This document shows, piece by piece, positions 8,958 through 33,702 of a stretch of 64,000 bases of DNA (position 1 is its first letter; each line of letters begins with the position of its first letter). Made by a program: the position numbers and the translations under genes. Source of the DNA: Candidatus Micrarchaeota archaeon (GTDB taxonomy: Archaea; Micrarchaeota; Micrarchaeia; Anstonellales; Bilamarchaeaceae); contig JACRGD010000005.1 in the NCBI GenBank assembly GCA_016212525.1, positions 90,304 through 154,303 on the forward strand, written 5' to 3'. The notes below the pieces were generated by a model that saw only the letters and a list, made by a program, of their open reading frames with translations, searched no databases and was not told where the DNA came from.

Positions 8958-9944
8958 ATGAAAACTATCATTGTCGGCGGTCAATATGGAGACGAGGGTA
9001 AGGGAAAGATCATTTCTTATATGTCGATTACCGATGATCCTGATGTAATCGCCCGTGGCGGAGTCGGTCCAAATGCCGGACATGAAGTCAATTACAAGGG
9101 CAAGCGCTACCCCATGCGAATGCTTTCATGCGGCTTTGTAAATGAAAAAGCAAGACTCCTTATTGGTGCGGGTGTAGTTGTCAATCCAGACGTTTTCCTC
9201 AAAGAAGTCGATAGCATTAACGCTCATAAACGTTGCGGAGTCGATCTTCGCTGCGCAGTCATAACCCCCGAGCACATTGCCCGGGACGGAGCATCCGAAA
9301 CATCCCAGAAAATCGGATCTACCAAAACTGGCTGCGGGCCGGCAGTCGCAGATCGGGTAAACCGGGTCGGCACACTCGCCAAGGATTCTCCAGCGCTCAA
9401 GCCCTATCTTACTGATGTTGTTAAAGAAGTCCATTCTGCCAAGCGGGTTTTGATCGAAGGTACTCAAGGTTTCATGCTCTCCAATCTCTATGGCACTTAT
9501 CCATTTGTAACTTCAAAAGATGTTTCTGCATCAACTATTGCAGCGGATGTCGGTCTTGGTCCAACCCAGATCGATGATGTTGTCATGGTCATCAAATCAT
9601 ATACTACTCGAGTTGGCGCAGGCCCGCTAAAAGATGAACTCTCTGTCGAAGCAGCAAAAGCCAAGAACATGCAGGAATACGGAACCGTTACTGGTCGTCC
9701 AAGAAGAACGTCAGTTGATCTCCACTATGACGATCTGAGATTAGCAGCCCAAATAAATGGCACTACGCAGATTGCCATTACAAAAATAGACGTTCGATTC
9801 CCAGGCAATGCTGGAAAGAAAAAATTCGCAGATCTAACTCTCGAGGCGCAGTCCTTCATTAAACATGTTGAAAAAGAAGTTGGAGTTCCGGTTACTCTCA
9901 TTGGTACCGGGCCTGATGCGGAAGAAACGATCGATAGAAGATGA
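8958..9944 (+). CDS. purA: adenylosuccinate synthetase (short archaeal type)
   Basis: MKTIIVGGQYGDEGKGKI P-loop, GPNAGH, STKTGCGPA and GTVTGRPRR motifs. The upstream part of track ORF 8739-9944 overlaps the opposite-strand gene and is rejected. Confidence 0.9.
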   Translation: MKTIIVGGQYGDEGKGKIISYMSITDDPDVIARGGVGPNAGHEVNYKGKRYPMRMLSCGFVNEKARLLIGAGVVVNPDVFLKEVDSINAHKRCGVDLRCAVITPEHIARDGASETSQKIGSTKTGCGPAVADRVNRVGTLAKDSPALKPYLTDVVKEVHSAKRVLIEGTQGFMLSNLYGTYPFVTSKDVSASTIAADVGLGPTQIDDVVMVIKSYTTRVGAGPLKDELSVEAAKAKNMQEYGTVTGRPRRTSVDLHYDDLRLAAQINGTTQIAITKIDVRFPGNAGKKKFADLTLEAQSFIKHVEKEVGVPVTLIGTGPDAEETIDRR

Positions 9945-10934: not shown

Positions 10935-10942
10935 TTTATAAA
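10935..10942 (+). promoter_or_regulatory. putative TATA box (TTTATAAA) for a leaderless cluster transcript
   Basis: TTTATAAAC ends about 22 nt upstream of the GTG at 10964. The same TTTATAAAC core recurs at 28204, upstream of the last cluster gene. Confidence 0.4.
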
Positions 10943-10963: not shown

Positions 10964-12202
10964 GTGTCGATTCGCTCTCTGCTGTTACTGTTTTTCGTTC
11001 TGGCGTTATCGTCACTATCTAGTGCATCTGCAGTAGATCTTGTAAACAATTCTCACCTCATTCTTGGAACTGTAATTGTTCTAATCATAATTACTCTGGC
11101 CCTAATGTTCATGATCTGTGAGCCCCTCAATATGCCCAGCCTAAAAGTCTGGGTAAAATCAGAACTCCGTGAAGTAATCGTTGCTGGAATAATTTGCGCG
11201 GTCTGTATTTCTTTTTTCTACGGTTCCACGTCCGTTACTGCAGTCCTCACGGGAGTTAGCGATTATCATCAAAGTGCGCTCTCATTTCTAGGTAATCTTT
11301 CCGAGCGCTCTTATGCTGGCTATTTCAACGCCATCAAAGTTAACCAATATGTAACTATGCGAAGCGGATTTTCAAGTTCGTTTTCGGCAGGCCACATGTA
11401 TGCTGCGCTTTCTTTAGTCCAGGCTCCTTATTCTGGCTACTCCGCACTAAACATAATTCTTAATAATATCTCCAATACTCTGGCAATCAACATCGTAACT
11501 CTCGAAGCACTCTCGGTTTTTCTCGATTTTATTATTCATAGTTCAGATAAACTTCTCTATCTGGCCTTTGCACTTAGATTTATTCCATTTACGCGCTCGG
11601 TTGGAAGTACCCTCATAGCCATAATTTTGGGAGTCTATGTTCTTTTTCCATTTGCACTCGTATTTCTATCGCTTACACATAGCTTCGGTGCTCCGACTTC
11701 AAATCCTCCAAACCAGGTTTTAGTTCCCACTGCAGTTGTTCCTTCGTCCGTCTTTAATGATCTAAGTTTCACTTTGCCTCCGGGTTCAAGTTTCATCTGC
11801 TCTGAGCCCTGGATGAGATTACTCGTGGCGAACCTGGGCGAACTTGGATTCTCGATTCCTCCCTGTCTGCTTATTGCGCTTGCCGGTCTTCCCTTTGGTT
11901 ATGGTGCACTTTTTGCCCAATGCTTCCAGGTCATGACCCAGTTTGTATATCCTCTTCTGACAAATGTAGTTCTGCCCATTTTGTGGAGTGCCGTTATTAT
12001 TCCAGCCTCTCTAATGCCAGCAAATGTGGCAGCTGTTTTCAATAGTCTTACTTCATTTAATGCCGCAGTTGTGGGTCTGGTCGTTCTGACTTATGTCGAT
12101 CTCATTTTGGTTCTCATGATAACCATGGTCGGTATAAGAAGCATTTCCCTCGCACTAGGAGGCGAGTATATGATTCCCGGAGTTCAGAGGTTGGTTTCAT
12201 GA
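10964..12202 (+). CDS. polytopic membrane protein, paralog 1 of 6 (unknown family)
   Basis: 412 aa. It carries the family motifs NMPSLKVWVKSELREV, LRFIPFTRSVGSTLIAIILGVYVLFPF and the C-terminal tail LGGEYMIPGVQRLVS. Its stop overlaps the next start (ATGA). Confidence 0.8.
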   Translation: MSIRSLLLLFFVLALSSLSSASAVDLVNNSHLILGTVIVLIIITLALMFMICEPLNMPSLKVWVKSELREVIVAGIICAVCISFFYGSTSVTAVLTGVSDYHQSALSFLGNLSERSYAGYFNAIKVNQYVTMRSGFSSSFSAGHMYAALSLVQAPYSGYSALNIILNNISNTLAINIVTLEALSVFLDFIIHSSDKLLYLAFALRFIPFTRSVGSTLIAIILGVYVLFPFALVFLSLTHSFGAPTSNPPNQVLVPTAVVPSSVFNDLSFTLPPGSSFICSEPWMRLLVANLGELGFSIPPCLLIALAGLPFGYGALFAQCFQVMTQFVYPLLTNVVLPILWSAVIIPASLMPANVAAVFNSLTSFNAAVVGLVVLTYVDLILVLMITMVGIRSISLALGGEYMIPGVQRLVS

Positions 12203-13218
12203 AGGTGAATATTCTATTCTTCCTACTTTCACTCATTCTTTTTTCTCCGGTAGTTTTCTCGCTCTCATGTTCCACCTCTACCTTTAATGATATCCTGGGC
12301 GGTGATTCGGGAAGAATACTGGGGGTTGCATTATTTTTAACTGTCCTAATCATTGCTCTTGCTTATGCATTTGGATCTATAATGAACAATCAGCATGCAA
12401 CCGTCTTTGCCAAAGAAGAACTTTTTCCCCTTTTTATGTCTGCTATTTTGGTAGTTGGCATCGGTTCTGTAGTTTTCTTTTCATGTTCCCTCTTCTCAAG
12501 TTTTCTTGATTATTCATTTTCTCCATTGGCTATCGGGGTGGGTTCTGGCACTTCTCTCGATTCCTGCTATGTAGGTTCAGATAGTCTCCAACGCCTTTCT
12601 TTCTGCTATCTGAGCCGGACCAAAGCTGCCGCTCAACAGTATGTGAGCGCTGCCATGGATAAAAGTCTTCATAGTGAAATGGATTCTACAAACGTGATTG
12701 GTGCATCAAATCCCATCAGTGGTAGTGTCTCTCTACCAACGACTGCCTGGAAGCGTGCATACGCTGCTCAGTTCGAATCCATGGCAATGTCCTTTGCATT
12801 GCCCTCGCTCATTAGTCTTACTATCCAAGTCCTTTTTCTATCGCTAAATGTCGAGTTGATAAAGTGGCTTTTGCCCGCGGCACTTTTACTTCGCATCCTA
12901 CCTCCCACTCGTCATCTGGGCAATGTTCTTATTGCTATTGTAATAGTACTCTATGTGATAGTCCCCTTCTTCTATGCCCTAAATGGTGCAATGGACAACA
13001 AACTTACAACCTCTGCATCCTGTATCGATTCTTACACGTCCATTGTTAGTGATCCGACTTTAGACTATGATACTACTGGCTCCTCGTGCGATTCACCAAC
13101 TGGTTATTGGGCACTCGCCCGTTTGATTCCTCACGCGTTTTTCCTGCCTAACCTGGTACTTGCCATTTCCATCACCTTTATCGTTTCACTTTCCAAGGCT
13201 TTGGAGGTTATCCAATGA
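12199..13218 (+). CDS. polytopic membrane protein, paralog 2 of 6
   Basis: 339 aa. Motifs ALAYAFG...VFAKEELFPL and LRILPPTRHLGNVLIAIVIVLYVIVPF. The C-terminal tail is degenerate (SKALEVIQ). ATGA overlaps at both ends. Confidence 0.8.
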   Translation: MKVNILFFLLSLILFSPVVFSLSCSTSTFNDILGGDSGRILGVALFLTVLIIALAYAFGSIMNNQHATVFAKEELFPLFMSAILVVGIGSVVFFSCSLFSSFLDYSFSPLAIGVGSGTSLDSCYVGSDSLQRLSFCYLSRTKAAAQQYVSAAMDKSLHSEMDSTNVIGASNPISGSVSLPTTAWKRAYAAQFESMAMSFALPSLISLTIQVLFLSLNVELIKWLLPAALLLRILPPTRHLGNVLIAIVIVLYVIVPFFYALNGAMDNKLTTSASCIDSYTSIVSDPTLDYDTTGSSCDSPTGYWALARLIPHAFFLPNLVLAISITFIVSLSKALEVIQ

Positions 13219-15098
13219 AACTCCTCTCGCATCCATCCATTTCACGTCTTTTACTTACGTGTGTTTTCCTACTATTCATATTTAGTTCTTCATTTTCTAC
13301 TGATGTTGCATCTGGTTCGCCCATCGCTCTTATTAGCGACTGGCGTGCTATGTCTCTTTCGCTCTCGATCCTTTCGGTCATAATAATTTCAATTGTCGTT
13401 ATGCTTGCGACTGCATTTGACATTTCCGAACTTAAGGCCTGGGCCAGCAGCGAATTAACTCAGGTTTTCTCTACTGCACTGATAGTTCTTCTCTTATCTG
13501 GCAGCCTTACCTTCATGGATATGATTGTTGGCCAGATTGTAAATGGCTCGAACCTTGGATTCACCTGCTCTGGTACTTCTATCTGCGCGGTTGCTGTTGC
13601 AAACAATTATCTCGATGGCCTTATTCAAATCGGAGTTGGTACCTCAAGTACTGCTCTAAATGATTATGCACTTGCATCAAAAATCAGCTCTATCCGTCCG
13701 ACTGTCTTTAGCCAGATCTTCATCTACCCGGTTCCCCTACTCCAGCCTCAGATCTCGTTTCTTCCGGGTGCAGGTTATCTTCTGGATCTGGATCGAACAA
13801 TTCAGGTCGTAGAAACACTCTCGAACATTCTTTCCTCACTCTATGCCCAGAAATTCTTTGTCTCTGAGATCTCATTCAAACTTGCTCCTATTCTTCTGGG
13901 TTTGGGTGTCGTAGCCCGTTCGTTTTTCTTCACGCGCAGAATCGGCGGACTCCTTATTGCGGTCGGTATTGGAGTCATGTATGTGTTCCCGCTAATGTAT
14001 GTCTTTGACTGGCTCAGTCTAAATGTGGCCCTCTCGGGTGGGTCTTCTTTAGGTATTGATGCTACGACCTGCCCCGTCCAGTGTATGGCACAGTTGCCTC
14101 ATTTCTACATTGAGGAAAATAATCTTTCCTTCTCTTCTCGTGCCGCTCTCTATTCATATCTGGATTCGTCTCGTGCCATCTCCAGCGGAGCAAACATAAC
14201 TATCTTCCATCTGGATCGGGGCGATCAGGAAACTGCAACTTTCGGGAGCTTTACAGTTCATAGCTGTAATGTTAATCCATGTCCGACCGAGTGTCGCGAA
14301 CTTCCATTTCCGCAATCGCCTAGTTGTTTTGCAAATGCCTCTTTCTGTGCCAATCTCCCTGTTCAGTGCAAACTTACGCGTTATGCTGATACTTCCGAAA
14401 CTGCCGCTGCAGATCTGGTTAGTTGTCCTTTGACCTGCAGGTCGGTTCCTCCTCTTAAGAGTAATTGCAGTGTTTCTACTTCTCTTTCAACTCACAGTGT
14501 ATTTTGCAGTGAAGCCGCTTCTAATCCTGCTGTAGCTGCACTTTGCCCAGTGATCTGTGCAAGTTCTCCATCCGACCCAATTTGTTCGTCTTCCACTGCA
14601 ATGGTTCCTGACGATCCACTCAATTGTCTGGACGCAAAGGACTACTGCCGATTTGCCCGATCTGACTCTTTGTCTGTTCGTCCGTCCAATTGTCGATCTG
14701 ATAGTCCCGCTTCATATTCCTGCCCTGCAAGTTTAGACGCCAATCAATCGTGTGTTTGGGTTCTTCCTCCGCAATCCCTCCTGGATTCACATCGCTGCGA
14801 TGGTTGTCTTTTTGTCAAGAAAGAATCGACCCTAAATCCTCCGATAATTGGTTCCTGTGCTGATCTGTGCGGTGCTTCAGGAGTTGTTGGACCAAGAAAA
14901 GTCTCGCCTTCTGAATTTGCAAGGCGCTCTTCAGAGGGTATGGTGGGTAAAGAGGATCTCAAATCAATCGCCACGCTCTATCTCCCGGGCTTCCTTCTTC
15001 CTCTTCTTAATATCGTAATTACTTTGATGTTCATTCGTTCGTTCTCGCAATTCTTGGGCGGGGATGTCGATATTCCGGGGCTGGTGAGAATAATATGA
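13215..15098 (+). CDS. polytopic membrane protein, paralog 3 of 6, with a ~270-aa cysteine-rich insertion
   Basis: 627 aa. Motifs ISELKAWASSELTQV, ARSFFFTRRIGGLLIAVGIGVMYVFPL and tail LGGDVDIPGLVRII. The insertion between the FTR helix and the last TM segment holds 24 Cys, including four CPxxC. Confidence 0.8.
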   Translation: MKLLSHPSISRLLLTCVFLLFIFSSSFSTDVASGSPIALISDWRAMSLSLSILSVIIISIVVMLATAFDISELKAWASSELTQVFSTALIVLLLSGSLTFMDMIVGQIVNGSNLGFTCSGTSICAVAVANNYLDGLIQIGVGTSSTALNDYALASKISSIRPTVFSQIFIYPVPLLQPQISFLPGAGYLLDLDRTIQVVETLSNILSSLYAQKFFVSEISFKLAPILLGLGVVARSFFFTRRIGGLLIAVGIGVMYVFPLMYVFDWLSLNVALSGGSSLGIDATTCPVQCMAQLPHFYIEENNLSFSSRAALYSYLDSSRAISSGANITIFHLDRGDQETATFGSFTVHSCNVNPCPTECRELPFPQSPSCFANASFCANLPVQCKLTRYADTSETAAADLVSCPLTCRSVPPLKSNCSVSTSLSTHSVFCSEAASNPAVAALCPVICASSPSDPICSSSTAMVPDDPLNCLDAKDYCRFARSDSLSVRPSNCRSDSPASYSCPASLDANQSCVWVLPPQSLLDSHRCDGCLFVKKESTLNPPIIGSCADLCGASGVVGPRKVSPSEFARRSSEGMVGKEDLKSIATLYLPGFLLPLLNIVITLMFIRSFSQFLGGDVDIPGLVRII

Positions 15099-16174
15099 TT
15101 GCCAAACTACGTCCTAAATTCAGCATGCTGCTTGGCATTTTATTCCTTGTCTGCTGTTCATTTGCAGCTCCCTTGGACTGGCTACCTTTCGCGGCAGGTG
15201 CCCTGACCCTTTCGGCAATAATTGTTGCAGTTCTCTATATGCTTGGAATTGGTCTGAATCTTAATGATCTAAAATTCCTCGCATCCGAGGAGCTTTACCA
15301 GCTCATTGCCACCGCAATCATTATTGGAGTTTTATTCACAGCAGACACAACCATCAATTCGGTTTTCGCTTCCTTTGGAATTACTCCGACTCTCCAGAAT
15401 GCAAGCATCGCTACTGTCAACGGCTATATTTCCAATCAGGCCTCTTCATTTAATACGCTCAAAACATTCGCTCACACTCTGGGCCTTGAGTCTTCCAAAA
15501 ACATGTACTGTTCTTTCTCAGCCATGGGCTTTAGCGTCGCTCCATGTGGTGGATTCGCTTCCATTACTCCTGCAGTTACCTTCGGAATACAGATGATTGC
15601 AATTTCCGTTACTGAATCCAATTCTCTTCTTACTCTTCTTAAGTTTGGATCCACCTATGGCCTCTCACTTATTTTGCCCTTGGGGATCCTGATGCGAACG
15701 TTCAAATTCACCCGTGGTGCAGGTGGCCTTATTATCGGATTTGGAGTTGGTATTTATCTCTTCCTTCCTCTGGCAGTAATTTTCATGGATGGTATAACTT
15801 CTCCGCTTGCACCAACTACCGCAGTTTCGCTTCCTGAATTTAGTTGTGACATTCATTCATTTAGTGATGGTGTCTATACTATTGCTGATATAAATGATCA
15901 TAGTCTCTTTGGTACTGAGGCTTTTAGTGGCTCTGTAAGTTTAAGTTCCTTTAGCGGTTCAAACAGTTTCGATTTCGGATACAAAAACGCCGCAATCGCA
16001 GGCGGACTTCTCATGGCACTCAAAGGTGTTTTGCCTTCTCTGATCTATTTCTTTTTGATCCAATCTACATTGACTCTCATAATCGCTCTTTCGGCATTTT
16101 TCATGTCCATGCGATCGATTTCAAGGCTCGCAGGCGCAGAGGTTGAAATTTCATCATTAATGAGGATTTCGTGA
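15095..16174 (+). CDS. polytopic membrane protein, paralog 4 of 6
   Basis: 359 aa. Motifs VLYMLG...LNDLKFLASEELYQL, MRTFKFTRGAGGLIIGFGVGIYLFLPL and tail LAGAEVEISSLMRIS. Confidence 0.8.
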   Translation: MIAKLRPKFSMLLGILFLVCCSFAAPLDWLPFAAGALTLSAIIVAVLYMLGIGLNLNDLKFLASEELYQLIATAIIIGVLFTADTTINSVFASFGITPTLQNASIATVNGYISNQASSFNTLKTFAHTLGLESSKNMYCSFSAMGFSVAPCGGFASITPAVTFGIQMIAISVTESNSLLTLLKFGSTYGLSLILPLGILMRTFKFTRGAGGLIIGFGVGIYLFLPLAVIFMDGITSPLAPTTAVSLPEFSCDIHSFSDGVYTIADINDHSLFGTEAFSGSVSLSSFSGSNSFDFGYKNAAIAGGLLMALKGVLPSLIYFFLIQSTLTLIIALSAFFMSMRSISRLAGAEVEISSLMRIS

Positions 16175-16178
16175 TTAT

Positions 16179-17303
16179 ATGGTTGTTGGCGGAATTTGTT
16201 CTAGTGCATCGTTGGGATTCCTTTCCTCCAGTCTCTACCCTCTTTTAGCTATTGCCGGAACCGTAACTGCAATAATTATTGCACTTGCTTATGCCATAGG
16301 AGAAGTTACTTCAAATCCCAAAATGTCTCTCTGGTCAAAAACCGAAATCTTCCAGCTTATTGCCTCTATGGTCTGCTGTGTTATTTTACTCCAGATTATA
16401 ACTGTCTTTTGTCTGCTTGATGTCCGTTCGATCTATTCTTTATTTACTAACACTGTCCCTGCTACTTCCCTTACAATCTATGATGCTGCTGATCACTATT
16501 TCATTGACGCGGGTACCTGGACCAGTGGCCTGCTTCGATCCGCCCGCTATCATCTAGGTTCATTTTTTGTCTTACAAAATTTCGGCCGGTCCACCTGCGA
16601 AGATATGCCTGCCGAGATTCGCTGGCTTTTCTGTATTTTTGGTACTGTTGCGACCAGTAGTGCCAGTGGTGGCATTAGTGTCAGTGTGAACACCATTCCC
16701 GATTCCGGATACGGTCTTCTCTCAAGTGGTCTTTTTGTTTCGTTCAACTCTATTCTATTCGCCCTTCTTTCGCTCCTTAATTACACTTTCATTCTTCGCT
16801 ATCTTTATGGAGGTTTCATACTTCTGTTCCTGCCTTTGGGCATGATGCTTAGGTCTATGCCGTTTATGAGGCAAATCGGTTCTCTGCTTATTGCCGTTGC
16901 AATTTCATTTGCAATAATCTACCCGCTTGTCCTCTCCGTCTTCTATATCGATTTCCTTCAACCTGCGCCTGTACGAATCCTGACACCCTGCTCATCCGCA
17001 TTCCTCTATTCAAATGAAGATTTGGATTCAAAGGTCGATTTGAGTGATGCATTTGATCTTGATGGCACTCTATATGATGATCTCTTTTCAACTTCAAACG
17101 ATCAGACAATCTGCGGTACAGCGTATGCCTCAGGTGAACATGGAGATCAGACTTTCGAAATTATAAAACTTACAGCCAATGCCTTCCTAATCGGAGTTTT
17201 CATTCCCTCATTATCTCTTTTGGCTTCTGCTGCTGCAGTCTCTTATGCAAACCGCTTCCTGGGACAGGAAATAGATTTAAGTAGAATAGTTCAGATGGTG
17301 TGA
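16179..17303 (+). CDS. polytopic membrane protein, paralog 5 of 6
   Basis: 374 aa. Motifs ALAYAIG...MSLWSKTEIFQL, LRSMPFMRQIGSLLIAVAISFAIIYPL and tail LGQEIDLSRIVQMV. Confidence 0.8.
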   Translation: MVVGGICSSASLGFLSSSLYPLLAIAGTVTAIIIALAYAIGEVTSNPKMSLWSKTEIFQLIASMVCCVILLQIITVFCLLDVRSIYSLFTNTVPATSLTIYDAADHYFIDAGTWTSGLLRSARYHLGSFFVLQNFGRSTCEDMPAEIRWLFCIFGTVATSSASGGISVSVNTIPDSGYGLLSSGLFVSFNSILFALLSLLNYTFILRYLYGGFILLFLPLGMMLRSMPFMRQIGSLLIAVAISFAIIYPLVLSVFYIDFLQPAPVRILTPCSSAFLYSNEDLDSKVDLSDAFDLDGTLYDDLFSTSNDQTICGTAYASGEHGDQTFEIIKLTANAFLIGVFIPSLSLLASAAAVSYANRFLGQEIDLSRIVQMV

Positions 17304-17306
17304 TTG

Positions 17307-18365
17307 ATGACTGACGCGACAATGATAACCGGATATTTGAGGGGCTTTGATGTAGGCGCCCTATCTACTATAGATCCGGCATTTCAATGGCTTCCTCTTT
17401 GTCTTGGTGCAGCAGTTCTTACAATTACTGTTTATGCCCTTATTTACGGTCTTTCAAAATCCTTCAATCTTTCAGAATTAGAACGCCATTCTAAATCCGA
17501 GCTTCTTAATGCCGGAGCGACTGCGCTGATTGTCATTTTCATCGTTTTTCTAGTTACTCAGATGGAAACATTTGTGATCGGTTCTGTTCTATGCAATGGT
17601 GCGACCTGTGCTACTTTGCCCTGTGGCGGAGTAAGTTATGAAATCCGTCAGCTCTCAACTGTTTTTGATGTTATTCAATGTCGAATGTCCGAGCGGGCAC
17701 ATTCGTTTGCAGATTTACAGGAACAGGTTACTTCTGCCGCTATTCTTCCAACTTCTCTGTTGAACCTTAATCTTGGTTTAGTTGGGACTCAGGTATTTTC
17801 CGGTTATATGGTCGGTTCCTGGTACAAGGAGGTCGAAACATATCGATTACTTAATCATGCACTCTCAACCTTTCTTATTTCAACTAATGCAATGATCGTT
17901 GTGGCACAATACATAAAGCAAAATTTACTCTCGTTTTTCCTGCCTATCGGGTTGCTTTTGCGTTCGCTCTATTTCACCCGCGGAATCGGTGCTTTCCTGA
18001 TTTCTTTTGCTCTTTGTTTCTATTTCATTTTCCCAATTGTCTATACTCTTACTGATTCGAACTATATTCCGCCTTCCTATTCAGCTCCGCCAACCCCGCC
18101 TGAAATTAAATCCCAGTTCTGCTATCCCACATTTACTGGCGTAGTCTATAGTATCTATTCTTCAACCTCATCCGCTTCACCCTCAGCCGGTTCAAACTCT
18201 ATTTCACTTGATGAACTTAGGTCTTCTCTTTCTTCAGTCTATATTTCTCTATTAGTCCAGCCATTCGCCTGCTTTGCCATAACTCTGGTTTTCGTTCGCT
18301 ATATGACCTACATATTTGGAGGAGAAGCCCAGGATGTGCTTCGAGGAGTCGCAAAAGTAGTTTAG
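17307..18365 (+). CDS. polytopic membrane protein, paralog 6 of 6
   Basis: About 352 aa. I prefer the ATG at 17307 to the TTG at 17304. Motifs YALIYG...LSELERHSKSELLN, LRSLYFTRGIGAFLISFALCFYFIFPI and tail FGGEAQDVLRGVAKVV. Confidence 0.8.
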   Translation: MTDATMITGYLRGFDVGALSTIDPAFQWLPLCLGAAVLTITVYALIYGLSKSFNLSELERHSKSELLNAGATALIVIFIVFLVTQMETFVIGSVLCNGATCATLPCGGVSYEIRQLSTVFDVIQCRMSERAHSFADLQEQVTSAAILPTSLLNLNLGLVGTQVFSGYMVGSWYKEVETYRLLNHALSTFLISTNAMIVVAQYIKQNLLSFFLPIGLLLRSLYFTRGIGAFLISFALCFYFIFPIVYTLTDSNYIPPSYSAPPTPPEIKSQFCYPTFTGVVYSIYSSTSSASPSAGSNSISLDELRSSLSSVYISLLVQPFACFAITLVFVRYMTYIFGGEAQDVLRGVAKVV

Positions 18366-18374
18366 GTGCTCGAT

Positions 18375-21300
18375 ATGAAAAACCGAAATCTGATCCTGAT
18401 TTTATTCCTTTTACTCGTATTCTCCGGTTGTACTCTTAGAAAGCCTGTTAGCTATGGCTGCTGTGTTGTTGATGAATCAGCAGCTACTCCTTCGTGCACT
18501 AGACTTCGTGATTCTTCACCTAGTTTGGTTTCTTTAGTTTCGACAAATCTTTGTCAAATGGACAATGGCCTATGCAACGTTACTCTTAGGCTTACCTTCT
18601 CAGACGATCCCTCTGCTGCAAGAACCGAAACTGCGATCATTCCAATCTGCACAAATACGACTTCAAAATGCGTTTCTGGCGACTGTACTGCGATGGTCTG
18701 CGGTCCATTTAAGTATGATCCAAGTCCGACTCCAAGTTTTTCAGATACTTCCCGTGCTACTTCCTCCAGTGCCTCTTTAGCTTCAGATTCCTCTTATTCG
18801 CTTGGTCTTTACAACAAAACCTGCAGATTAGTTGATGCCGGATCAACATTGGACAACTTCTTTACTAATACAAAAGGCAGTTTTGTCAATACGTTTAGAT
18901 TCGGTTTTGGATCTTCCTTTTCCGAGTTCGACGCTTATCGATATCTGTTTCCAACAAGCGACTTTTTCTGCAGTGTAAATCCCGATGATAATGCAAAAGA
19001 TCGATATATGAACTATATGATGTCTCCTCTGGATTTCCAGGATTATATGCGAAGCGCTCTTGCGATCAAGCCACAGGACCGTGCATCAGCTGGAAACTTC
19101 TGTCCAGTAAACAGCGTCTCGCCTTTCTTCTCGACGACCTATTTCAATTCCCCATTTCCAAACTATATGCGAAATTTTGTAAGTCGCCAGAGGTATATTT
19201 ACAATACTACGATTACTACGCTTCCGCCTTCTGGAGGTTCAGGGTCTTCTAGCTTTGAACAAAACTATTCCTTTACCAAAATCGAGTCGTATAACTTTAC
19301 ACAGCTCGATAAAAAATTCTATGGAGGAACATTGCCGCTTATCTATTCTACTGCTTTAGAGGGCTTTGATTCTATCAATCGCGCGGCTCCATTTGAGTGC
19401 GAATCTCCAACCCAGTGTATGTCTGGTTTATGCAACTATGAGGACTATCGAAGATCGATCTGTAAAATTGGCTCTACCTGGGTCGAGTGCGGTTGCGATA
19501 AAAATGCCCGAAAATGCGTTTCCCAAACTTCTATTTATAATCGAACTATTGCAGGAGCAATTCCAAACACTGCCGCTGCTCTCCAAACCTATGTCGATGC
19601 ATATCAGGATCGTGGCGCTCTTTACAAAACTCAGGTGATTTACAACGCAACTGTTCATTACGCACGAATTGATCCTGATTGTAGCAGTGGTGTCGTAAGA
19701 AAAATCGATCCTCAGAATTGTGGGGATCGTGGTGAGACCTGTTTTGATATGGGTTCTTCACAAGTGCCCGATTCGCCAATTTTTCCCTCAAGTGTCCAAT
19801 TCTTTGGTGAGGTCCGGGAGGGTTATATTGGATATAGCTTTTTGAGCAGGGATGACTTTGAAAAGACTGATCTTGTACGTAATTGTCATCTGGAACCGGG
19901 TAGAGATTATATTGTATCTGGTTCGAGTGGCCCTCCGGCTGTTGATCCCACTGAACTGACTTCAGAAGAAGTCACTGCTGTTACTGCTACTGGTGCGATT
20001 TTTAGACCGCCTTCTCCAATTCCAGAGCGAATTGGTTATCAACTCGGGCGTAGGCCTCATTGCGCTACTCTCGATGAGGGTCCAGATGATCTTGGTCTTT
20101 ATACTTACGTAAGTGAAGCGATTTTAGTTCGATCTGCTGGTGATTGTGAATTGGATGGCAATACGCACATGCCAATAACAAAGACGTTTGGCTGGTGTGA
20201 AGGTTGTACTTTCTCCAATATTGCAAAACAGGTTCTCCTTAGCAACGATACCAAGCCCTATGTCCCGCTTGTCGATATTAAGTCTCCTCGGGAAGGTGCG
20301 GCATTGAATTTAACTGCGCCTGTTTGTAATTTCGCTAAAAATCCAGTTGCAATTTCAGATCTTCTTAGTTATCCCTATAATACTACGATAACCGGTGGTG
20401 GCAGTTCGCCATTTGATCCATATCTAAGTCCGGTTATTCCCTCTGATATTACCTGTCCTGGCTATGAAACTACAATCAACACACGTCAAAGTAACTTCAC
20501 TTTAACTTCAGTCGATTCTGTTTACTTAGGTCAAAAGGAAGCAGAATTCTTTAGAGAAGGAACTCTCCCTGTTCTTGATTTATCAGATTCTTCCAATTGG
20601 GATTCTCAAAATAATCTTACCATTACTCAGAGTCTGATCGATCGGGGACCGGCAGTCATTATAGTTTCCAAGATCGCTACCTATCCCTCTTCCGGATACT
20701 TAGATACCTTGGGAGATCGGCTTTCGAATATTCGCGCAGTCTGTAAGAACTGTCTTACTTCAGTTGAACTTTCCTTGCCATTTACTTCTGAGAGCACTGC
20801 AAGTGGCAGATATTTTGGTGATTTCTTTATTCTCGATGCTCTTAACCGCTCTGCAGTTTTCGATAATATTGATGTAATTTCCTATGATTACTATCCAACT
20901 GAACTGATTAGAGATCATACTACTTTCTGCACTGGTTCTTCATTGATTCGAAACCAGTTATTAGTCGATTCAATTGCCAACTTTTCCAGTACAATGCTTC
21001 GAAGATATGCTCCTAAGTATAAGCTGAGTTTAATTCCTACGTTTTACTTTAGTTCCAGCTGTCTTAATGATGGGAATGTTTCTCTGGTCTTTAACTATCT
21101 TTTGAAGAATCAGAAGACTCTAAGTCGCAGTGGCTTAATTGGAATAATCTATACTGGTGATGCATCTACTTATTATGATTCTGGAGGGCATTCCACCGAT
21201 GCATTCTGTTCTATCGATAAAGGTGCAAAGAATATGCTTTCTTCCGAACCGCTTACTGTGTATTCCAAGCTACAGACTACTCCTGCCGGAAATCTAACCT

Positions 21301-21827
21301 GCCAGGTTTGTAGTGATGCAGATCTGGCTCTGGGACGTTGTAATCCGATTTGTGATAATGGGGTTAGATGTACTAATCCTGATAGTGGTTTTCTTACGGA
21401 TGAAGCATTTCGCCTCCATCTATCTAGGGGTTCGGATGTCCCTCTTAAATGCCCCTCCAATTCCATCCCAGAACCCTGCACGCCCTGCTCAGCCAGGACT
21501 GAAAGAATGTCCTGTGATTTCTTTTTGGCCGATGGTAGTTCCTATTCTCAGACCTACAACCTTAGAGATCTTTCAGCAGCTACACCTGATATTATTTCCA
21601 GTATTCCATCTCCCTACAAATGTTGTGTTAGTGATCCAGGACGCCCAACAAACTATACTTTCAACAAGCAGACTACTGTAGATCACACTGTTGCTCCTAT
21701 TATTTTCTCAAGAGCAGGTGATCCAAGGCAGGACTGCGGAGTTTCTGATCTTTCTCTCTTAACTCCTCAGATGTGCGGTGCTGATGCTCCATTTAAGAAT
21801 TATCGATTGAGATGCAGGATCATTTAA
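18375..21827 (+). CDS. giant secreted cysteine-rich lipoprotein, probably N-glycosylated (unknown function)
   Basis: About 1150 aa. The ATG at 18375 is preceded by GGTG. Signal peptide ends in the lipobox-like VFSGC. I count roughly four dozen Cys by hand and many N-x-S/T sequons. No C-terminal TM segment and no recognised domain. Confidence 0.8.
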   Translation: MKNRNLILILFLLLVFSGCTLRKPVSYGCCVVDESAATPSCTRLRDSSPSLVSLVSTNLCQMDNGLCNVTLRLTFSDDPSAARTETAIIPICTNTTSKCVSGDCTAMVCGPFKYDPSPTPSFSDTSRATSSSASLASDSSYSLGLYNKTCRLVDAGSTLDNFFTNTKGSFVNTFRFGFGSSFSEFDAYRYLFPTSDFFCSVNPDDNAKDRYMNYMMSPLDFQDYMRSALAIKPQDRASAGNFCPVNSVSPFFSTTYFNSPFPNYMRNFVSRQRYIYNTTITTLPPSGGSGSSSFEQNYSFTKIESYNFTQLDKKFYGGTLPLIYSTALEGFDSINRAAPFECESPTQCMSGLCNYEDYRRSICKIGSTWVECGCDKNARKCVSQTSIYNRTIAGAIPNTAAALQTYVDAYQDRGALYKTQVIYNATVHYARIDPDCSSGVVRKIDPQNCGDRGETCFDMGSSQVPDSPIFPSSVQFFGEVREGYIGYSFLSRDDFEKTDLVRNCHLEPGRDYIVSGSSGPPAVDPTELTSEEVTAVTATGAIFRPPSPIPERIGYQLGRRPHCATLDEGPDDLGLYTYVSEAILVRSAGDCELDGNTHMPITKTFGWCEGCTFSNIAKQVLLSNDTKPYVPLVDIKSPREGAALNLTAPVCNFAKNPVAISDLLSYPYNTTITGGGSSPFDPYLSPVIPSDITCPGYETTINTRQSNFTLTSVDSVYLGQKEAEFFREGTLPVLDLSDSSNWDSQNNLTITQSLIDRGPAVIIVSKIATYPSSGYLDTLGDRLSNIRAVCKNCLTSVELSLPFTSESTASGRYFGDFFILDALNRSAVFDNIDVISYDYYPTELIRDHTTFCTGSSLIRNQLLVDSIANFSSTMLRRYAPKYKLSLIPTFYFSSSCLNDGNVSLVFNYLLKNQKTLSRSGLIGIIYTGDASTYYDSGGHSTDAFCSIDKGAKNMLSSEPLTVYSKLQTTPAGNLTCQVCSDADLALGRCNPICDNGVRCTNPDSGFLTDEAFRLHLSRGSDVPLKCPSNSIPEPCTPCSARTERMSCDFFLADGSSYSQTYNLRDLSAATPDIISSIPSPYKCCVSDPGRPTNYTFNKQTTVDHTVAPIIFSRAGDPRQDCGVSDLSLLTPQMCGADAPFKNYRLRCRII

Positions 21828-21833
21828 TCTTGC

Positions 21834-21866
21834 TGTTTTTTCCTTATTTTTCTATTATTTTATGAT
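21834..21866 (+). terminator. possible oligo-T archaeal termination region
   Basis: T-runs (TGTTTTTTCCTTATTTTTCTATTATTTT) directly after the 21827 stop. A TTTATAAAA box follows at about 21887, before the next gene. Confidence 0.3.
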
Positions 21867-21932: not shown

Positions 21933-22322
21933 ATGCAATTTTTGAAAGATGTGAATTTGAAGGAAGTTTGTATATCTATTCTTATCTCAATAGTTTTATT
22001 CCTACTTCTTAAACCATTTTACGTATACAATGTATCTCTTGTTTGTGGAGGTTCAAAAGAAGTATTTCTATACTCTACCGGTTCAGATCTTTTTAGGATT
22101 CGAGGTTGTCTTTATACTTCCATCAATCAGCCATTTCAAAACTTAGTCTGGGATCTTCTAATTTATACTTTGCCTTGGATTCTGGCTTTCTGCTACTATT
22201 ACTACAAAACACCAAATGTTAAATTTGATTTCAAAATTTTGCCTTTTGGTTTAATCCTGTGTGGTTATCTGCTTTTTCAAGTGCTCTATATATTATATAT
22301 TTATCCAGGTAATCTCCTATGA
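21933..22322 (+). CDS. small integral membrane protein (hypothetical)
   Basis: 129 aa with three or four hydrophobic helices. Its stop overlaps the subtilase start (ATGA). Confidence 0.5.
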   Translation: MQFLKDVNLKEVCISILISIVLFLLLKPFYVYNVSLVCGGSKEVFLYSTGSDLFRIRGCLYTSINQPFQNLVWDLLIYTLPWILAFCYYYYKTPNVKFDFKILPFGLILCGYLLFQVLYILYIYPGNLL

Positions 22323-24925
22323 GACTTGCAACTGGGGCTATCTCTAACCATCATCGATCTATTGAATTGAAAAAAGAAAAAAGACTAGCTCTTTTTTCTA
22401 CAATTGCGCTTGCAGGTTTAGCCTCCTGTGTTGTTGATTCTCCACCTGACCAAAATCGATTTGGATTCTTAAATGAAATTCATTTAACAAGTCCGACTAG
22501 ATTTGTTCCATTTAGGAGGTCTGGTTTTAGTTCCGATCTTTTAGTTGGAGAGAATCAATTTTTGCTCTATTATGAGCCAGACATAAGTCCAGATCAAAAA
22601 AACAGAATTGAAGATTGGCTTTTAGGACAAAATGCACGCAAGGTTGGTCAGAACCCCTTTTCATCAATGACTCAATATGAAGTTTTTTCTTCAGTTCAGC
22701 TAAATTCGATCTTAGATTACCTTAATGCGCAGCCCGGAGTCGTTACTGCTATCCCTAATCTGGTCCTTAGACCAACTCTAAATCCCGATCCTGATTTGTC
22801 AACCTCTTTCGATTCGGGTAACTGGTGGTTAACTTCCCTTAATCTTAGAGATGCCTGGTCTATAACTACTGGCTCTAGAGCGATTCCAATTGCAATAGTT
22901 GATTCAGGAATAGATTCTGGAGTTGGTGGTTTTGGAAGTAAGCCTATCACTCATTTTGTAAGATGTACTAGACCTATAGGTGGTAGAACAGAGGTTTATT
23001 TTTCTCTTTTGGCAGGTTCTAATCCGTACCATTGTTCTCAATATATTTCTGGTGTTCATGGAACGCAAGTTGCATCGATTGCAGCGGCACCTGGAGATGA
23101 CCATTTGGGCGGTGCTGGTGTTGCGTGGCAAAATCCATTGATCTCAATTGATGCTTATGGTTACTCTGGCGTCGGATCAGTAACTCTTGCTGAGACTGAT
23201 GCTGCAATCCAAACTGCAATTAGGGCAGGAGCACGTGTGATAAATGTCTCACTTGGATATGGGGGTTGTATTGCTCCTCTTTTTTGTATTTCTAACAATC
23301 AAGAGGCTCGTCATATTTTCCGGTCTGGTTTTATCAATTCCGCTCGTGTCGCTAATCGAAACAATGCCTTAGTTGTCTTTGCCGCAGGCAATGACGGTTT
23401 TTCAGGTGATGATAGTTGGCTATCGCCAGCTGATAGACAATACGAAAGATATTTCATAACTAATGTTCTTTTTGTGGGGTCGGTTGACTATCTCAATGAT
23501 CCGACCTGTAATGCTTGTAATTTTTCATCTGCTCTCCAAACTATTTGCAGGGATAATGGAACTTCTGACTTAAGCAGGTTGAATCGATGCAATTGCTTTT
23601 GGTGTAGTAGTTCAACTTTAAGTGGTCGATTAACTGCCAGCGGCAGAGTAGTAGAATTGTATACTCCTGGCTGTCACATTGCGGTTCCTATGAGTAGCAC
23701 CTTGGTCCAAGGTAGTTCGATATCTTCCCCAATGGTCTCCGGAGCAGCCGCTCTAGTCTGGTCAGTAAATCCAAACCTTACAGCCCCGCAAGTAAAACAG
23801 ATTTTGTTGGATACGGCTCGTTCTGCATCTAGTCTAGGTGGTTGTATGGACGTAGGTAGAGGTATCCCCGATGTTGCAGCCGCAGTCCGGGCAGCAAGAG
23901 CAACTTTGCAGGATGCTTCTGTTCCGACTGATGCTTCAGTTGATGCAACTTCCGATGTATCAAGAACAACGACATTCTATTCTCAAGCACGTTTACTCAG
24001 AAACAATGATGTCCTTCTTCGTGGAAATGAGGTTTTACCTGGTACTCATTATTCTGCCCTTCTAACGAGACTTAGTTCAAGTGGTCGACCTCTTTGGACA
24101 TTTCAACCCTCTAGATCTGAATCGCAAATTGGTGCTTTATATGAAGATGAGCGGGGTCTTTGGATCTCTGGGAGATGGCAATCTGGTGGATCAACTTCTA
24201 GAGCTGCACTTGCCCAACTAGATAGTTCAGGAGCTCTAGTTTCAGAGCGTTTACTTCCAGACTCAGATCTAATAAGAAGTCTTTTTGTAAACCCAGACGG
24301 CTCTCTGGTTGGTGATACTGGTTATCAATTATTTGAATATGATAGTTCTGGTCGCCCAGTCTGGGTAACTCGTGCCCGTCCTGCTACTCCTTTTGATGTT
24401 GTAAGAACTTCTGCTGGTTATGCCTTTTTCCGTTATAATGGATTATATGGTGTAAACCGTACTGGTAATATTGTTCTGGATTCTGGGTATGTTATAGGTC
24501 ACGATAATTCCTTTGCATATTCTCCAAATGCTGGTTCTGGTTGGTATATTCTAAGTGATTCTCCGTTCTCTGATCAATCCTTATCTCATCTAGATTACGA
24601 AGGACACTCAAGATTCTTAGGCCAATTATCCATTCCCAATTTACGTGCTTTTGATTCTCCAAATTCCTTGGCAATGACTAGGGCAAGTCGGTCCTTTGTT
24701 CTTTTTGCCCGTTACCATACTACTGATGGTGCCGGTCAAACAAAACTTTTTGGAGTTTCTGATTCTGCCACGATTCTTTGGTCAAGATCTCTTGATTTTA
24801 GGGCTCGAAATGTTGATGGTTTAATGACTACTTCTGACGGTCGCATCCTTCTTGTCTCAACTGACAATACAAATCCCTCGCAAGTTAGGCTTGATTATTT
24901 TGATGAATCTGGCAACCCTCTCTAG
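22319..24925 (+). CDS. S8 subtilisin-like serine protease with a C-terminal repeat (beta-propeller-like) region
   Basis: Catalytic contexts AIVDSGID (Asp), HGTQVASIAAA (His) and GSSISSPMVSGAAALV (Ser). Lipobox-like LASC near the N-terminus. The C-terminal ~330 aa carry repeated SGRP(L/V)W-type strands. Confidence 0.85.
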   Translation: MRLATGAISNHHRSIELKKEKRLALFSTIALAGLASCVVDSPPDQNRFGFLNEIHLTSPTRFVPFRRSGFSSDLLVGENQFLLYYEPDISPDQKNRIEDWLLGQNARKVGQNPFSSMTQYEVFSSVQLNSILDYLNAQPGVVTAIPNLVLRPTLNPDPDLSTSFDSGNWWLTSLNLRDAWSITTGSRAIPIAIVDSGIDSGVGGFGSKPITHFVRCTRPIGGRTEVYFSLLAGSNPYHCSQYISGVHGTQVASIAAAPGDDHLGGAGVAWQNPLISIDAYGYSGVGSVTLAETDAAIQTAIRAGARVINVSLGYGGCIAPLFCISNNQEARHIFRSGFINSARVANRNNALVVFAAGNDGFSGDDSWLSPADRQYERYFITNVLFVGSVDYLNDPTCNACNFSSALQTICRDNGTSDLSRLNRCNCFWCSSSTLSGRLTASGRVVELYTPGCHIAVPMSSTLVQGSSISSPMVSGAAALVWSVNPNLTAPQVKQILLDTARSASSLGGCMDVGRGIPDVAAAVRAARATLQDASVPTDASVDATSDVSRTTTFYSQARLLRNNDVLLRGNEVLPGTHYSALLTRLSSSGRPLWTFQPSRSESQIGALYEDERGLWISGRWQSGGSTSRAALAQLDSSGALVSERLLPDSDLIRSLFVNPDGSLVGDTGYQLFEYDSSGRPVWVTRARPATPFDVVRTSAGYAFFRYNGLYGVNRTGNIVLDSGYVIGHDNSFAYSPNAGSGWYILSDSPFSDQSLSHLDYEGHSRFLGQLSIPNLRAFDSPNSLAMTRASRSFVLFARYHTTDGAGQTKLFGVSDSATILWSRSLDFRARNVDGLMTTSDGRILLVSTDNTNPSQVRLDYFDESGNPL

Positions 24926-28234: not shown

Positions 28235-31200
28235 ATGAAACGGGTATTCCTCCTAACCCTCCTGTCTCTGTTAGTATTGTCATTCTCAATTGGTCCTGGT
28301 TCTACCGAGCCAGTGCCCACTACTGACAGTATCGACATCAGTGGAATTCTTGGTTCTGGAACTGTAACCGAACTCGTCGCTTCGGGTCTAATTAGTCCGG
28401 AGTGCAGCCTTTGCGAAGATCTTTCAGCATATTCTCAATCTTTTCTCAATATTATAAATGACGATACAACCTCACATCTTCAAATCGCCCTTACTAATTC
28501 TTCACGAGCCCCTGTACAGCGCGCTCCGATAATTCTTCGAATAAATGGTAGCGGTTCTGACACCTATCGCGTTGTCTACACCAACAACCGGGGAATTGCA
28601 TCTTTCGATTACGGTCCATACAATACGAGCTGTCAGAAATTCACAGCATTCTACTGCTATGGCTACAATTCCTGCTCTTTCCTTAAGTGTCTCCATGCCC
28701 TGGGTTTTGAAGAAGGCAGCGAGCCATACTCTGATTTTAGTTCAGTGCCATTATCTCCAAGAACCATTCGTCCAACTCTTCGCCAGAGCCCTGCTCTTGT
28801 CAAATCGTCTTCGGCTACTTTCAACTACTGTCCAACTCCGACTACTACCGTTTCAACAACTCCGGCATTCTGCCTTCCTTTAGTTCTAATCGCAGTCCTG
28901 CTTCTTGGCGCTCTATATGTCTCAGGTCGAAATCCCTTTATGGCGTTCGATCTTTCCAATCCTCATGTAGGCAAACACATCCGCTATACTGCACGACAAA
29001 GAAACATTTATCATATGGATACTGTCGGTGCCGCAACTGCCATTACTAAAGTAGTCGGTGCTGTTGCAAATCCAACCCAGACCCGCTCTACTGAGAGTCA
29101 ACAACTCAGATCTGGTTCGGGAATGGTGGGTTTAGCAGGCGGTCTTACTGGTGGAATCCGTGGTGCGGTGCAGGGAGCTAGAGGTCTTGGTACTGCTGTC
29201 CGATCTGCTGGCGCTAATGCCCGAAACCCTACTGCTACTGGTCCTAGGCCAAGTACTGCCCGGACAATTGGCAATGCTTTTACACAATCCCTGGGTGGTT
29301 CTTCTCTTGGTCGTATGATTGGCGGAATTGTAGCTGCCGGCCGAGGTGGCGATCCATCTACTACTCTCTTAAGTCGAATTGGTAACATTGCACTAGCAGT
29401 TCTTACGAACAGTAGCTTCGGATATCTTGTTTCTGAACTTGGCGCTACGGTTCGATCACTCCGACTCGATGCAAATCTTGAGCGGGCATTACAAAATTAC
29501 ACCAACTTCCAGCATCATGTCGATCGAAGAGAAACTACTACTGTTGATGGTGAACAGGTTACCGTTACTATGCGCTACACGCTCACCGCAAGAAACGGCA
29601 GAATGGAAATGACTGTTGCCCAGGTTCGTGAAAATGGCGATGTTATTCCAAATTCCAGCCGGCCTGTTTTGCAATCTGCTCTTCCTGAAGAAGTTTCAAG
29701 ATCTTTCGGGACTCAAATTCACGACCGTGCACTAACTTACTATCGGACTTCTGCAGTTGAAAACGGTCGCTCGGCAAATGACGAGACGATTCGTCTTGGT
29801 CAATTGGCATCCGCTGCTGCTTCAGGTCGAAGTCTTTCTGACTTAGCTCCGGATAGTCCACTTCGCGCAGCTCTCGCAGCAAATGGTCTGGTCTTTGGCA
29901 CATCTGATGAGCGATTACAACTGGGTCGCGCTGTTGCTGCAGCACTTACTGATCCTTCTGTTCAAAGTAGTCCTGCGTTCTGGGAAGCACTTTCCTCTGC
30001 AGTAGGTGAGCGCAATGCCCGTGAAATGTTCGTATCTGCAAACCGGATAGTTGCTTACAATGCCGAAGCAGCATATTCCGAGCGTCGGGCGGCTTTATTG
30101 GAAACAATGCCTGGTAATGTTATCATGTCCAATCAAATGTTCATGGCATATCAGTCGCTCATGGCCCATGCCAATGGATCAGCTGCACAGAACCTCGCTG
30201 CGACTGCTTTGGCTAATGTTGCAAGTTCTACTTCAGAATCCTTTTCCTTTAATGCCGGAGGCGAACAAGGTGGTTCATTAATTGGCCGGTTCAGAACTGC
30301 AGCTGATCTAGCTGCTGCTTCTTCAGAGCAGGATCTTGCAATTTTAGGTATCGCCCGGGCCACTGCACTTAATCCCCAATTAAACATTCCAAATGTGGGT
30401 AATATGCTCGAGCGATTTAGTGCAGATCCTATTGCTAATGATGCTGCCGGTCTCCTTGGTGCAAATGCTGAACAATTTAATCGAGCTACTGTAGCTGATG
30501 GTACTAGAGTTTATTCAGAATCCGCAGCTGAAGTTCGGGATTACTGGCGTGGTATCGGTCAACTTACTGGTGTTTATGCCGCTTCCGAGGGCGATTCCAT
30601 GGCAGCCGCCCGACTTAATCTCCCAACGATTGCACAAATTACTACTAATTTCACTTCTGACGATAGTCATGTTGATGCCACTCGTTATGTCCGTGCGCTT
30701 GTGCATGCTCAGATGAATGGAGATAGTGTTCAGTTAGATCGCATTTTGGCTTCTTTGGATCGCTATGGTCATGCATCCGATCCAGAATCCCGGGCTGCCG
30801 AATCAGTTCGATTAAGTACACTCGAATCGGTTTCAACTGCCCAAGCAAACGTTCGTGCACAGGGCCTTGAAGTCATAGATCGTCAGAGAACATTCGAGTT
30901 TGCAAGGCGCGATCTTCAACAGCAGATCGATGCTTTGCCTTCGGACGATCCAAGGCGTTCAATATTAGAGCAGCGAATCGAATCTCTTGCAGCTGCATAT
31001 GTTCAATATACTGAGGCCTCATCTGCCCGCAGTGCAGCACCTGGTGTTGAAACTTCCCAGGTGGGAGTTACTACCGATCGACTGTTCCTTCAGGCAGATG
31101 CAAACTTCCGCACTCTTGTTGCGACTTCCCTTGGCGGTCGAATCGATGGCTATATAGAGACTAATCTATCTGCTCCTGCAAGAACCCAATTCGTTGAGGA

Positions 31201-33683: not shown

Positions 33684-33702
33684 GTTTTCGCCTTTTAATG
33701 GT

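Follow-up and report, generated by a model that had tools for sequence, protein, structure and literature searches.

The locus

We have analysed a stretch of 64,000 nucleotides (nt) of a Candidatus Micrarchaeota genome of the family Bilamarchaeaceae (assembly GCA_016212525.1, contig JACRGD010000005.1, positions 90,304 to 154,303), which is referred to here as the window and whose numbering is used throughout. Its subject of interest is a tandem array of six genes on the forward strand, followed by a seventh and much longer gene. A previous reading of the DNA, made from the sequence alone, had proposed that six open reading frames (ORFs) between 10964 and 18365 encode translationally coupled paralogs of an unknown polytopic membrane-protein family, and had suggested that they make up a hetero-oligomeric assembly. 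All six ORFs are indeed there (10964-18365, + strand), with lengths of 412, 339, 627, 359, 374 and 353 amino acids (aa), and our verdict is that they represent a real, deeply conserved and uncharacterised hetero-subunit membrane module.

The six proteins are rich in Leu and Ser and scarce in charged residues, and in the NCBI annotation the locus tags from HY990_00830 onward all read “hypothetical protein”. Paralog 1 (10964..12202, + strand, GTG start; tag HY990_00830) has a signal-like N-terminus and five core transmembrane (TM) helices, with additional hydrophobic segments within extracellular loop 2; its core reads AF.FRFIPFTRQ.GSTLIA and its tail ALGGEYM.PG.QRLV. Paralog 2 (12199..13218, + strand), which overlaps paralog 1 by an ATGA, is the sole member without the GGE tail and carries a conserved tail of its own, LPNL.LA..ITF....KALKV.G. 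Paralog 3 (13215..15098, + strand) is the longest, its extracellular loop 2 having grown to ca. 330 aa that contain 23 of the 27 Cys of the whole protein. Paralog 4 (15095..16174, + strand) was the one chosen for structure modelling. Paralog 5 (16179..17303, + strand; core LR..P..R..GSL, tail Y.NRFLGEEIDLSRIVQ) has no signal peptide of cleavable appearance, and paralog 6 (17304..18365, + strand) provides, with its core residues 191-249, a sub-threshold match to CedE that is taken up below.

The close packing of these genes was described correctly, with ATGA overlaps at 12199, 13215 and 15095, then a gap of 4 nt (16174/16179) and one of 0 nt (17303/17304). Gene 6 starts with a TTG at 17304, an ATG being located 3 nt further on. 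A further junction, absent from the sequence-only reading, is that with gene 7 (c1; 18366..21827, + strand, 1153 aa; start at 18375 in the NCBI model), which abuts gene 6 at 18365/18366. The TATA-box-like octamer TTTATAAA at 10935..10942 (+ strand), 22 nt 5' of the GTG of gene 1, probably serves as the promoter of the operon, whose mRNA would be leaderless, and the T-rich tract tcttgctgttttttccttatttttctattatttt (21828..21862, + strand) directly 3' of the c1 stop codon is a likely archaeal terminator at the operon end, both roles being read from sequence. Because the genes overlap or are separated by gaps of 0-4 nt, with the TATA box before gene 1, the T-tract after gene 7 and a separate octamer for the next gene, the layout suggests that 10964-21827 is a single seven-gene operon comprising the six paralogs and c1.

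The octamer is present in four copies in the window (8397, 10935, 21887 and 28204), three of which (10935, 21887 and 28204) sit 22-39 nt 5' of transcription-unit starts in the surface-protein region. This count is no higher than chance (33 of 100 shuffles reach four), and the promoter argument is one of position. The recurrence of the octamer before the six-paralog operon, before a unit with a 129-aa protein and a subtilase, and before a third gene, c16, suggests a common promoter type or co-regulation.

Shine-Dalgarno-like motifs (GGAGG, GAGGT, GGTGA) are embedded in the conserved C-tail codons at 12175-12198, 13190-13214, 15072-15094, 16150-16178 and 18340-18365, e.g., in Q-R-L-V, encoded by CAG AGG TTG GTT. 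Part of the conservation of the tail, including its Arg, could be due to a constraint acting at the RNA level.

Six ancient paralogs

An alignment of the six proteins gives identities of 19-28% and six invariant residues, E67, R205, R211, G214, I218 and P229 (paralog 1 numbering), in agreement with the core motif L-R-x5-R-x2-G...P that had been noticed before. The G-G-E/D tail was likewise seen in all except paralog 2. Describing this last tail as degenerate was right in that the GGE is gone, and wrong in that the tail is a conserved trait of the second orthogroup in all ten genomes. The motif A-x-x-Y-x-x-G, also proposed as a shared feature, turned out to be conserved in part only. When the six were compared by BLASTP, E was ≤ 0.003 in 14 of the 15 pairs, four of which gave a co-linear alignment over 207-245 residues at E ≤ 3e-10. 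Hidden Markov models (HMMs) of each orthogroup detected the other five with median scores of 18-69 bits, as against 8.7 bits at most, or nothing, for reversed sequences. The alignment and the HMM comparison identify the six as true paralogs.

The family is large. An exhaustive search by profile, covering 1.84 billion representative proteins (clustered at 50% identity), retrieved 2,790 clusters with E ≤ 1e-3, of which 1,947 had E ≤ 1e-10; lengths ran from 239 to 1635 aa among the best 150 family matches. Word-indexed homology searches, in which hydrophobic words dominated, gave 4 and 15 matches, and those with a source name were all from Micrarchaeota. This paucity, together with the Leu/Ser-rich composition and the few charges, is what one would cite in favour of the shared motifs being low-complexity hydrophobic similarity, or of the ORFs not being genes. 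The reversed-sequence control rules out the former, and the number of clusters, the preserved synteny (see below), the invariance of charged and Gly/Pro positions and the confident structure model all go against an artefact, which we regard as already refuted and its probability as negligible.

Fixed number, order and orthology

Thirteen related loci were available, 12 of them distinct (L004 and L010 are the same contig), and ten came from genomes that represent species in GTDB, under the labels Micrarchaeota, Bilamarchaeaceae or “ainarchaeum”, the last of which we read as Iainarchaeum (phylum Iainarchaeota). The nine distinct loci that are complete, one of them labelled Iainarchaeum, all contain exactly six members, in tandem and in the same order, and the loss of any of the six copies was not seen in any of them. 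Moreover, the gene at each position of the array is the orthologue of the paralog at the same position in the window, the best match scoring 125-648 bits and the second best 33-71 bits. The same holds outside these genomes, with 162 of 165 metagenomic representatives sorting cleanly into one of the six orthogroups. Between lineages the orthologues share only 27-57% identity, and every orthogroup has its own conserved variant of the core and of the tail. The third has a hypervariable Cys-rich loop and, as a result, lengths of 357-1635 aa in the metagenomes. Given this one-to-one orthology, the fixed number and order and the signature proper to each orthogroup, the sixfold duplication is older than the divergence of the lineages sampled.

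Flanking genes other than c1 vary among the genomes. In eight other distinct loci a c1 match was found 3' of the six genes, either directly or after one ORF (L009, L010 and L011), four of these eight matches being cut by the contig end. The intervening ORF of these three loci (L009 17406-18020, L010 16263-17402, L011 17945-18823) lies between paralog 6 and the c1 homologue, is not conserved (204-379 aa), and may represent either an accessory gene specific to the lineage or a c1 N-terminus that was split off in error.

What is found here, i.e., a fixed number, a fixed order and one-to-one orthology across lineages combined with coupled expression (as deduced from the gene layout), is what would be expected of an obligate hetero-oligomer. 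One could also imagine that there is no assembly at all, and that the six are independent paralogs (transporters, receptors or adhesin anchors) of differing specificity, joined by co-regulation only. The strong differences among the extracellular loops in sequence and length are indeed what would be expected of diversified ligand specificity. However, families of that kind usually vary in copy number and order, and here both are fixed despite the low identity between orthologues. Besides, translational coupling favours equal dosage, one member permanently lacks the tail of the other five, which points to a specialised position in an assembly, and no transporter family was matched. We therefore consider independent paralogs improbable.

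Topology and conservation pattern

The AlphaFold2 model of paralog 4, built with an alignment of 86 sequences, is all-helical and confident (predicted local distance difference test, pLDDT, 85.6; predicted TM-score, pTM, 0.78). Membrane helices were modelled at residues 30-54, 57-93, 158-202, 207-238 and 297-345, with an additional helix at 100-133 in the first large loop. Since Lys and Arg cluster in three segments (55-66, 200-210 and 340-359) and Cys and N-x-S/T sequons are in the remaining loops, the protein is likely oriented with its N-terminus outside and its C-terminus inside. For each paralog the predicted topology, drawn from hydropathy and the modelled helices, has two extracellular loops, one of ca. 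100 aa following TM2 and a hypervariable one following TM4. An internal duplication, with the TM1-TM2 hairpin corresponding to that of TM3-TM4, was undetectable.

The idea of a conserved core with diversified outer loops stands up well against the predicted topology. Conservation peaks at the C-tail, at the TM3-turn-TM4 element and at the remaining cytoplasmic loop, and is lowest in the extracellular loops, the information content being 2.19, 2.85 and 2.21 bits per column for the cytoplasmic segments and 1.26 and 0.73 for the extracellular loops. The two core Arg had been thought to be buried, which has to be given up, as the model and the positive-inside rule put both beside the short cytoplasmic turn between TM3 and TM4. 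A conserved core, variable outer loops and six fixed orthogroups together make the pattern expected of obligate, non-redundant subunits of one assembly.

Among known structures the nearest in rank were the eukaryotic Tweety homologues (TTYH1-3), which have five TM helices like this family, took nine of the 15 top Foldseek ranks against the PDB and aligned over nearly the full length. Their E-values of 0.1-1.3, TM-scores of ca. 0.19 and root-mean-square deviations of 17-26 Å led us to reject them as a structural match, and neither sequence similarity nor genomic context is common to the two.

The lipoprotein encoded by gene 7

The seventh gene product is predicted to be a giant secreted lipoprotein. 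Its N-terminus resembles a lipobox (LLVFSGC), and it contains 49 Cys as well as 18 N-x-S/T sequons. Twelve homologues were found, and all those with a source name are from Micrarchaeota. Its AlphaFold model is poor overall (pLDDT 51), with blocks within 730-930 that reach 63-89. The region of ca. 730-1000 looks like a (beta/alpha)8 barrel and was matched by Foldseek to glycosidase barrels of clan GH-A (E = 7e-5 to 1e-3, TM-score 0.35-0.46), resembling the glycosidases of families GH5, GH10, GH26 and GH53. A catalytic GH-A identity was dropped, as residues 730-1000 lack an invariant Glu and the model inspires little confidence, and the predicted barrel fold is to be taken as a lead only. Type IV secretion systems (T4SSs) of monoderms include a cell-wall hydrolase, and a parallel with c1 would be speculation. 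The candidacy of c1 as the Micrarchaeota surface-layer (S-layer) protein was also rejected, as it contains no S_layer_N or other Pfam domain and the published S-layer protein has PF05123.

A possible relationship to VirB6, TrbL and CedA

VirB6, TrbL and CedA are polytopic platform or channel proteins of T4SS-like machines that transfer DNA or protein. The sequence-only reading had placed the six paralogs in an unknown family. This is true insofar as scans of Pfam, NCBIfam and PHROGs with the six proteins and 178 family members gave no match above threshold, but it missed weak links to CedA, CedE and VirB6, and the family could be a very distant branch of a known superfamily. For the NCBIfam scans the members were divided into a set of 86 and a set of 92 proteins, with no overlap. 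CedA (NF041796) matched six of the 178 (three in each set; best E = 1.4e-4) and CedE (NF053657) eight (two and six; best E = 5.8e-4), in both cases below threshold. These two were among the most frequently matched NCBIfam families, with MAG1210_fam (four members) between them in the second set, and lesser matches included a conjugative pilin-like family, TcpD and a generic T4SS protein model. In Pfam, three members matched T4SS_pilin and a single one TrbC/VirB2, in a match whose E-value, although the lowest in the second set, was sub-threshold too. Two orthologues from position 6 aligned with CedE in the same register (protein residues 182-249, model positions 125-192 of 260). Finally, the top match in the viral structure library BFVD was a TrbL of the VirB6 family (360 columns, E = 0.17, probability 0.69, TM-score 0.25).

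These signals are coherent among themselves. Both CedA and CedE resemble VirB6; five TM helices are present in CedE, and the N-terminus of CedA is homologous to a VirB2-like pilin (PMC11868833, PMC9905601), so that matches to both kinds of model fit together. The N-terminal signal and helical hairpin of the family resemble VirB2-type pilins, just as stated for CedA (PMC9905601). Further points in common are that CedA and CedE (the Ced DNA import system of Sulfolobales) and TedA (Thermoproteales) are archaeal and have about five TM helices, and that CedA and CedE were the sole recurrent matches to sequence models, always through the TM3-loop-TM4 core and in a consistent register. The topology predicted above (N-terminus out, five TM helices, C-terminus in, large loop after TM2) agrees with the VirB6/CedE type; Jakubowski and colleagues reportedly described VirB6 in 2004 as having its N-terminus in the periplasm, its C-terminus in the cytoplasm, five TM helices and a large loop following TM2. 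A hetero-oligomeric channel has been proposed for CedA and CedE, which are paralogs of each other (PMC11868833). In terms of function, the closest analogy is with the VirB6/CedA platform of machines for DNA and protein transfer, and in particular with Rickettsia, which has five VirB6 paralogs that are ca. 80% divergent from one another, conserved mainly in the TM-cytoplasmic segment, and each kept across genomes (PMC2653234). These rvhB6a-e arrays of Rickettsiales are, like ours, tandem sets of ca. 80% divergent paralogs, conserved mainly in one TM-cytoplasmic segment and each kept among genomes, and belong to host-dependent organisms with reduced genomes.

There are also clear differences. 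Unlike Ced and Ted, which have one or two such proteins, this system has six fixed paralogs, whose Cys-rich extracellular loops are much larger, and a giant lipoprotein that appears to be co-transcribed. It lacks an adjacent CedB/TedB ATPase and a pilin gene of its own, and it belongs to a DPANN lineage and not to Thermoproteota. With respect to bacterial VirB6/TrbL, the differences are that there are no other T4SS genes nearby, no invariant Trp and no match to the Pfam TrbL model.

Several results weigh directly against the kinship. Pfam TrbL (PF04610) was not matched, and no family model of VirB6, TrbL or CedA was reached at its curated threshold. The matches to CedA, CedE and the pilins score 14-19 bits, compared with a cut-off of 400 for CedE, and come from related members, hence they are not independent. 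The TrbL fold match taken alone is not significant. Foldseek searches of the PDB gave nothing at E ≤ 0.001 (the top match, TTYH2, has E = 0.1 and a TM-score of 0.19), and VirB6 was missing from the top 50. Comparison by hhalign of the family profiles (A3 and A6) and of those of the six orthogroups with nine MPF_T VirB6 proteins gave probabilities of 1% or less, scores of 10-24 and inconsistent registers; the reversed VirB6 alignment used as control scored 14-24, and the VirB6 profile is shallow (Neff 3.7). VirB6 has an invariant and essential Trp in a TM-cytoplasmic segment. In the family, too, conservation is strongest in a TM-cytoplasmic turn-TM element, but there R, R, G and P are invariant, and a conserved Trp is absent. 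No gene for a VirB4/CedB/VirD4-like ATPase or a separate pilin was found in the operon, in the 10-kb flanks of ten loci or in the 64-kb window.

Other searches were silent. Those of PDB sequences with the family profiles returned AcrZ-type single-helix noise only, hhalign gave no signal with the single sequences of TrwI and TrwL of R388, and tblastn with paralog 6 had no match in 72,556 plasmids. An alignment of the core to the “GP...T...W” segment of VirB6 was discarded because the reversed control was equally good.

The one ATPase of this superfamily in the window is an ordinary HerA-type protein (45777-47285, - strand), with a HAS barrel and DUF87, which scores best against HerA models and is 27 kb from the operon. 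CedD is a HerA-clade DNA-translocating ATPase. The gene in the window stands alone, with no NurA, Mre11 or Rad50 neighbours, and scores 90 bits against CedD, and we claim no link to the operon.

Taking all this together, we put the chances that the family is kin to VirB6/CedA at about even, and do not file it as a member. The more specific reading that we prefer, namely a hetero-oligomeric platform that works with the lipoprotein and is a very distant branch of VirB6/TrbL/CedA, is held tentatively, at somewhat less than an even chance; the paralogy, the constant number and order, the operon structure, the fold model and the pattern of conservation have been shown, and co-assembly, orientation, kinship and transport role are all inferred. 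The main alternative is a hetero-oligomeric complex unrelated to type IV secretion, a lineage-specific envelope machine such as an anchor or stalk that holds the lipoprotein and surface proteins, or an organiser of the pseudo-periplasm under the S-layer, in which case the CedA, CedE and TrbL hints would be a convergent likeness of helical hairpins. The conservation of number, order and orthogroups fits such a machine equally well, fold and profile searches ended without a significant match, no ATPase is nearby, and the neighbourhood is rich in secreted or surface proteins (c1, the subtilase, a beta-helix protein and c16). In addition, how the S-layer protein of Micrarchaeum is anchored has not been settled, and a partner in the form of a membrane stalk has been put forward (bioRxiv 10.1101/2021.04.28.441871). 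On the other hand, conservation is strongest on the cytoplasmic face, which is not what one would expect if the complex were an anchor and nothing else, an S-layer domain is missing from c1, and the repeated T4SS-type matches in three independent libraries would have to be a coincidence. We view an unrelated envelope complex as possible, though less likely than the preferred reading. In its most definite form, an unrecognised machine common to Micrarchaeota and Iainarchaeota, with a new membrane fold not derived from T4SSs and acting as a gate for exchange with a host or as an attachment base, it is in our view the less likely outcome but has a substantial chance of being true.

A proposed assembly and its implications

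Under the preferred reading of a platform distantly akin to VirB6/TrbL/CedA, the six subunits would be made in near-equal amounts from one mRNA and would most likely come together at a fixed ratio to form a single hetero-oligomeric platform in the membrane. The TM3-RxxxxxR-TM4 hairpin, the first cytoplasmic loop with its conserved E and the C-tail may provide a shared packing surface or a dock for a cytoplasmic partner, with E66, R201, R207 and G210 (paralog 4 numbering), plus the tail, as the putative core residues. Outside the cell, the six different extracellular faces and the lipoprotein would build an asymmetric surface structure. If the family is a branch of VirB6/TrbL/CedA, the platform would serve these host-dependent archaea as the membrane base for a conduit or a device of attachment. 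A role in exchange with, or attachment to, a host is plausible. A connection with the nanotubes of DPANN archaea was rejected, given that the tubes in the published co-culture arise from the host (PMC11329633).

The genomes of Micrarchaeota and of other DPANN archaea are reduced, and these organisms are believed to rely on hosts; their cell-surface devices are largely uncharacterised. The operon is a concrete candidate for one of them, present in every related locus examined while the flanks differ, with six fixed paralogs and a giant lipoprotein, a confident model unlike anything solved, and nothing other than hypothetical in its annotation. Our literature search found no paper on the six-paralog family or the operon. 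If the link to VirB6/CedA is true, it would extend T4SS-derived machinery to DPANN archaea and supply an archaeal counterpart of the unexplained multiplication of VirB6 in Rickettsiales, a question that would become testable in two domains. If it fails, both the membrane-protein fold of the six and the type of hetero-oligomeric envelope complex that they form would be new. On present evidence, the module is best described as a new variant of the theme of VirB6/CedA-type platforms.

Neighbouring genes and minor observations

Two units 3' of the operon are loosely associated with it. The first (21933..24925, + strand) encodes a small membrane protein of 129 aa and a subtilase of 868 aa (Peptidase_S8), and has its own TTTATAAA at 21887; a homologous subtilase is found directly 5' of the six genes in L001, L002 and L005. 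The second is c16 (28235..31996, + strand; 1253 aa), with the octamer 24 nt 5' and no family match. It has a signal peptide, an ectodomain of ca. 200 aa and one TM helix, followed by ca. 1000 aa rich in Ala, Ser, Arg and Gly that are probably cytoplasmic, and a homologue directly follows c1 in L006.

Genes for ScpB, a small kinase and PadR lie directly 5' of the array on the opposite strand in five distinct loci (L009, L010, L011, L013 and L014). In the window they are at 32582-34023 (- strand), past an extra block of 10 kb (subtilase, beta-helix protein and c16), and their shifted position indicates a local rearrangement or insertion, to judge from gene order.

The window also holds typical genes of archaea, including those of the exosome (Rrp4, Rrp41 and Rrp42), Elp3 and a tRNA-splicing endonuclease. 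Rfam detected a tRNA of 135 nt at 32392-32526 (- strand; 44 bits), with a presumed intron, and ARAGORN found no tRNA in the window. A gene for a TnpB / Cas12f-like nuclease (OrfB_IS605; 1729-2883, - strand) adjoins the exosome operon. Lastly, the adenylosuccinate synthetase ORF (8739-9944, + strand; 401 aa) has an N-terminal extension of ca. 70 aa that looks spurious; the conserved start is near MKTIIVGGQYGDEGKGK, and the orthologue in L004 has 330 aa.

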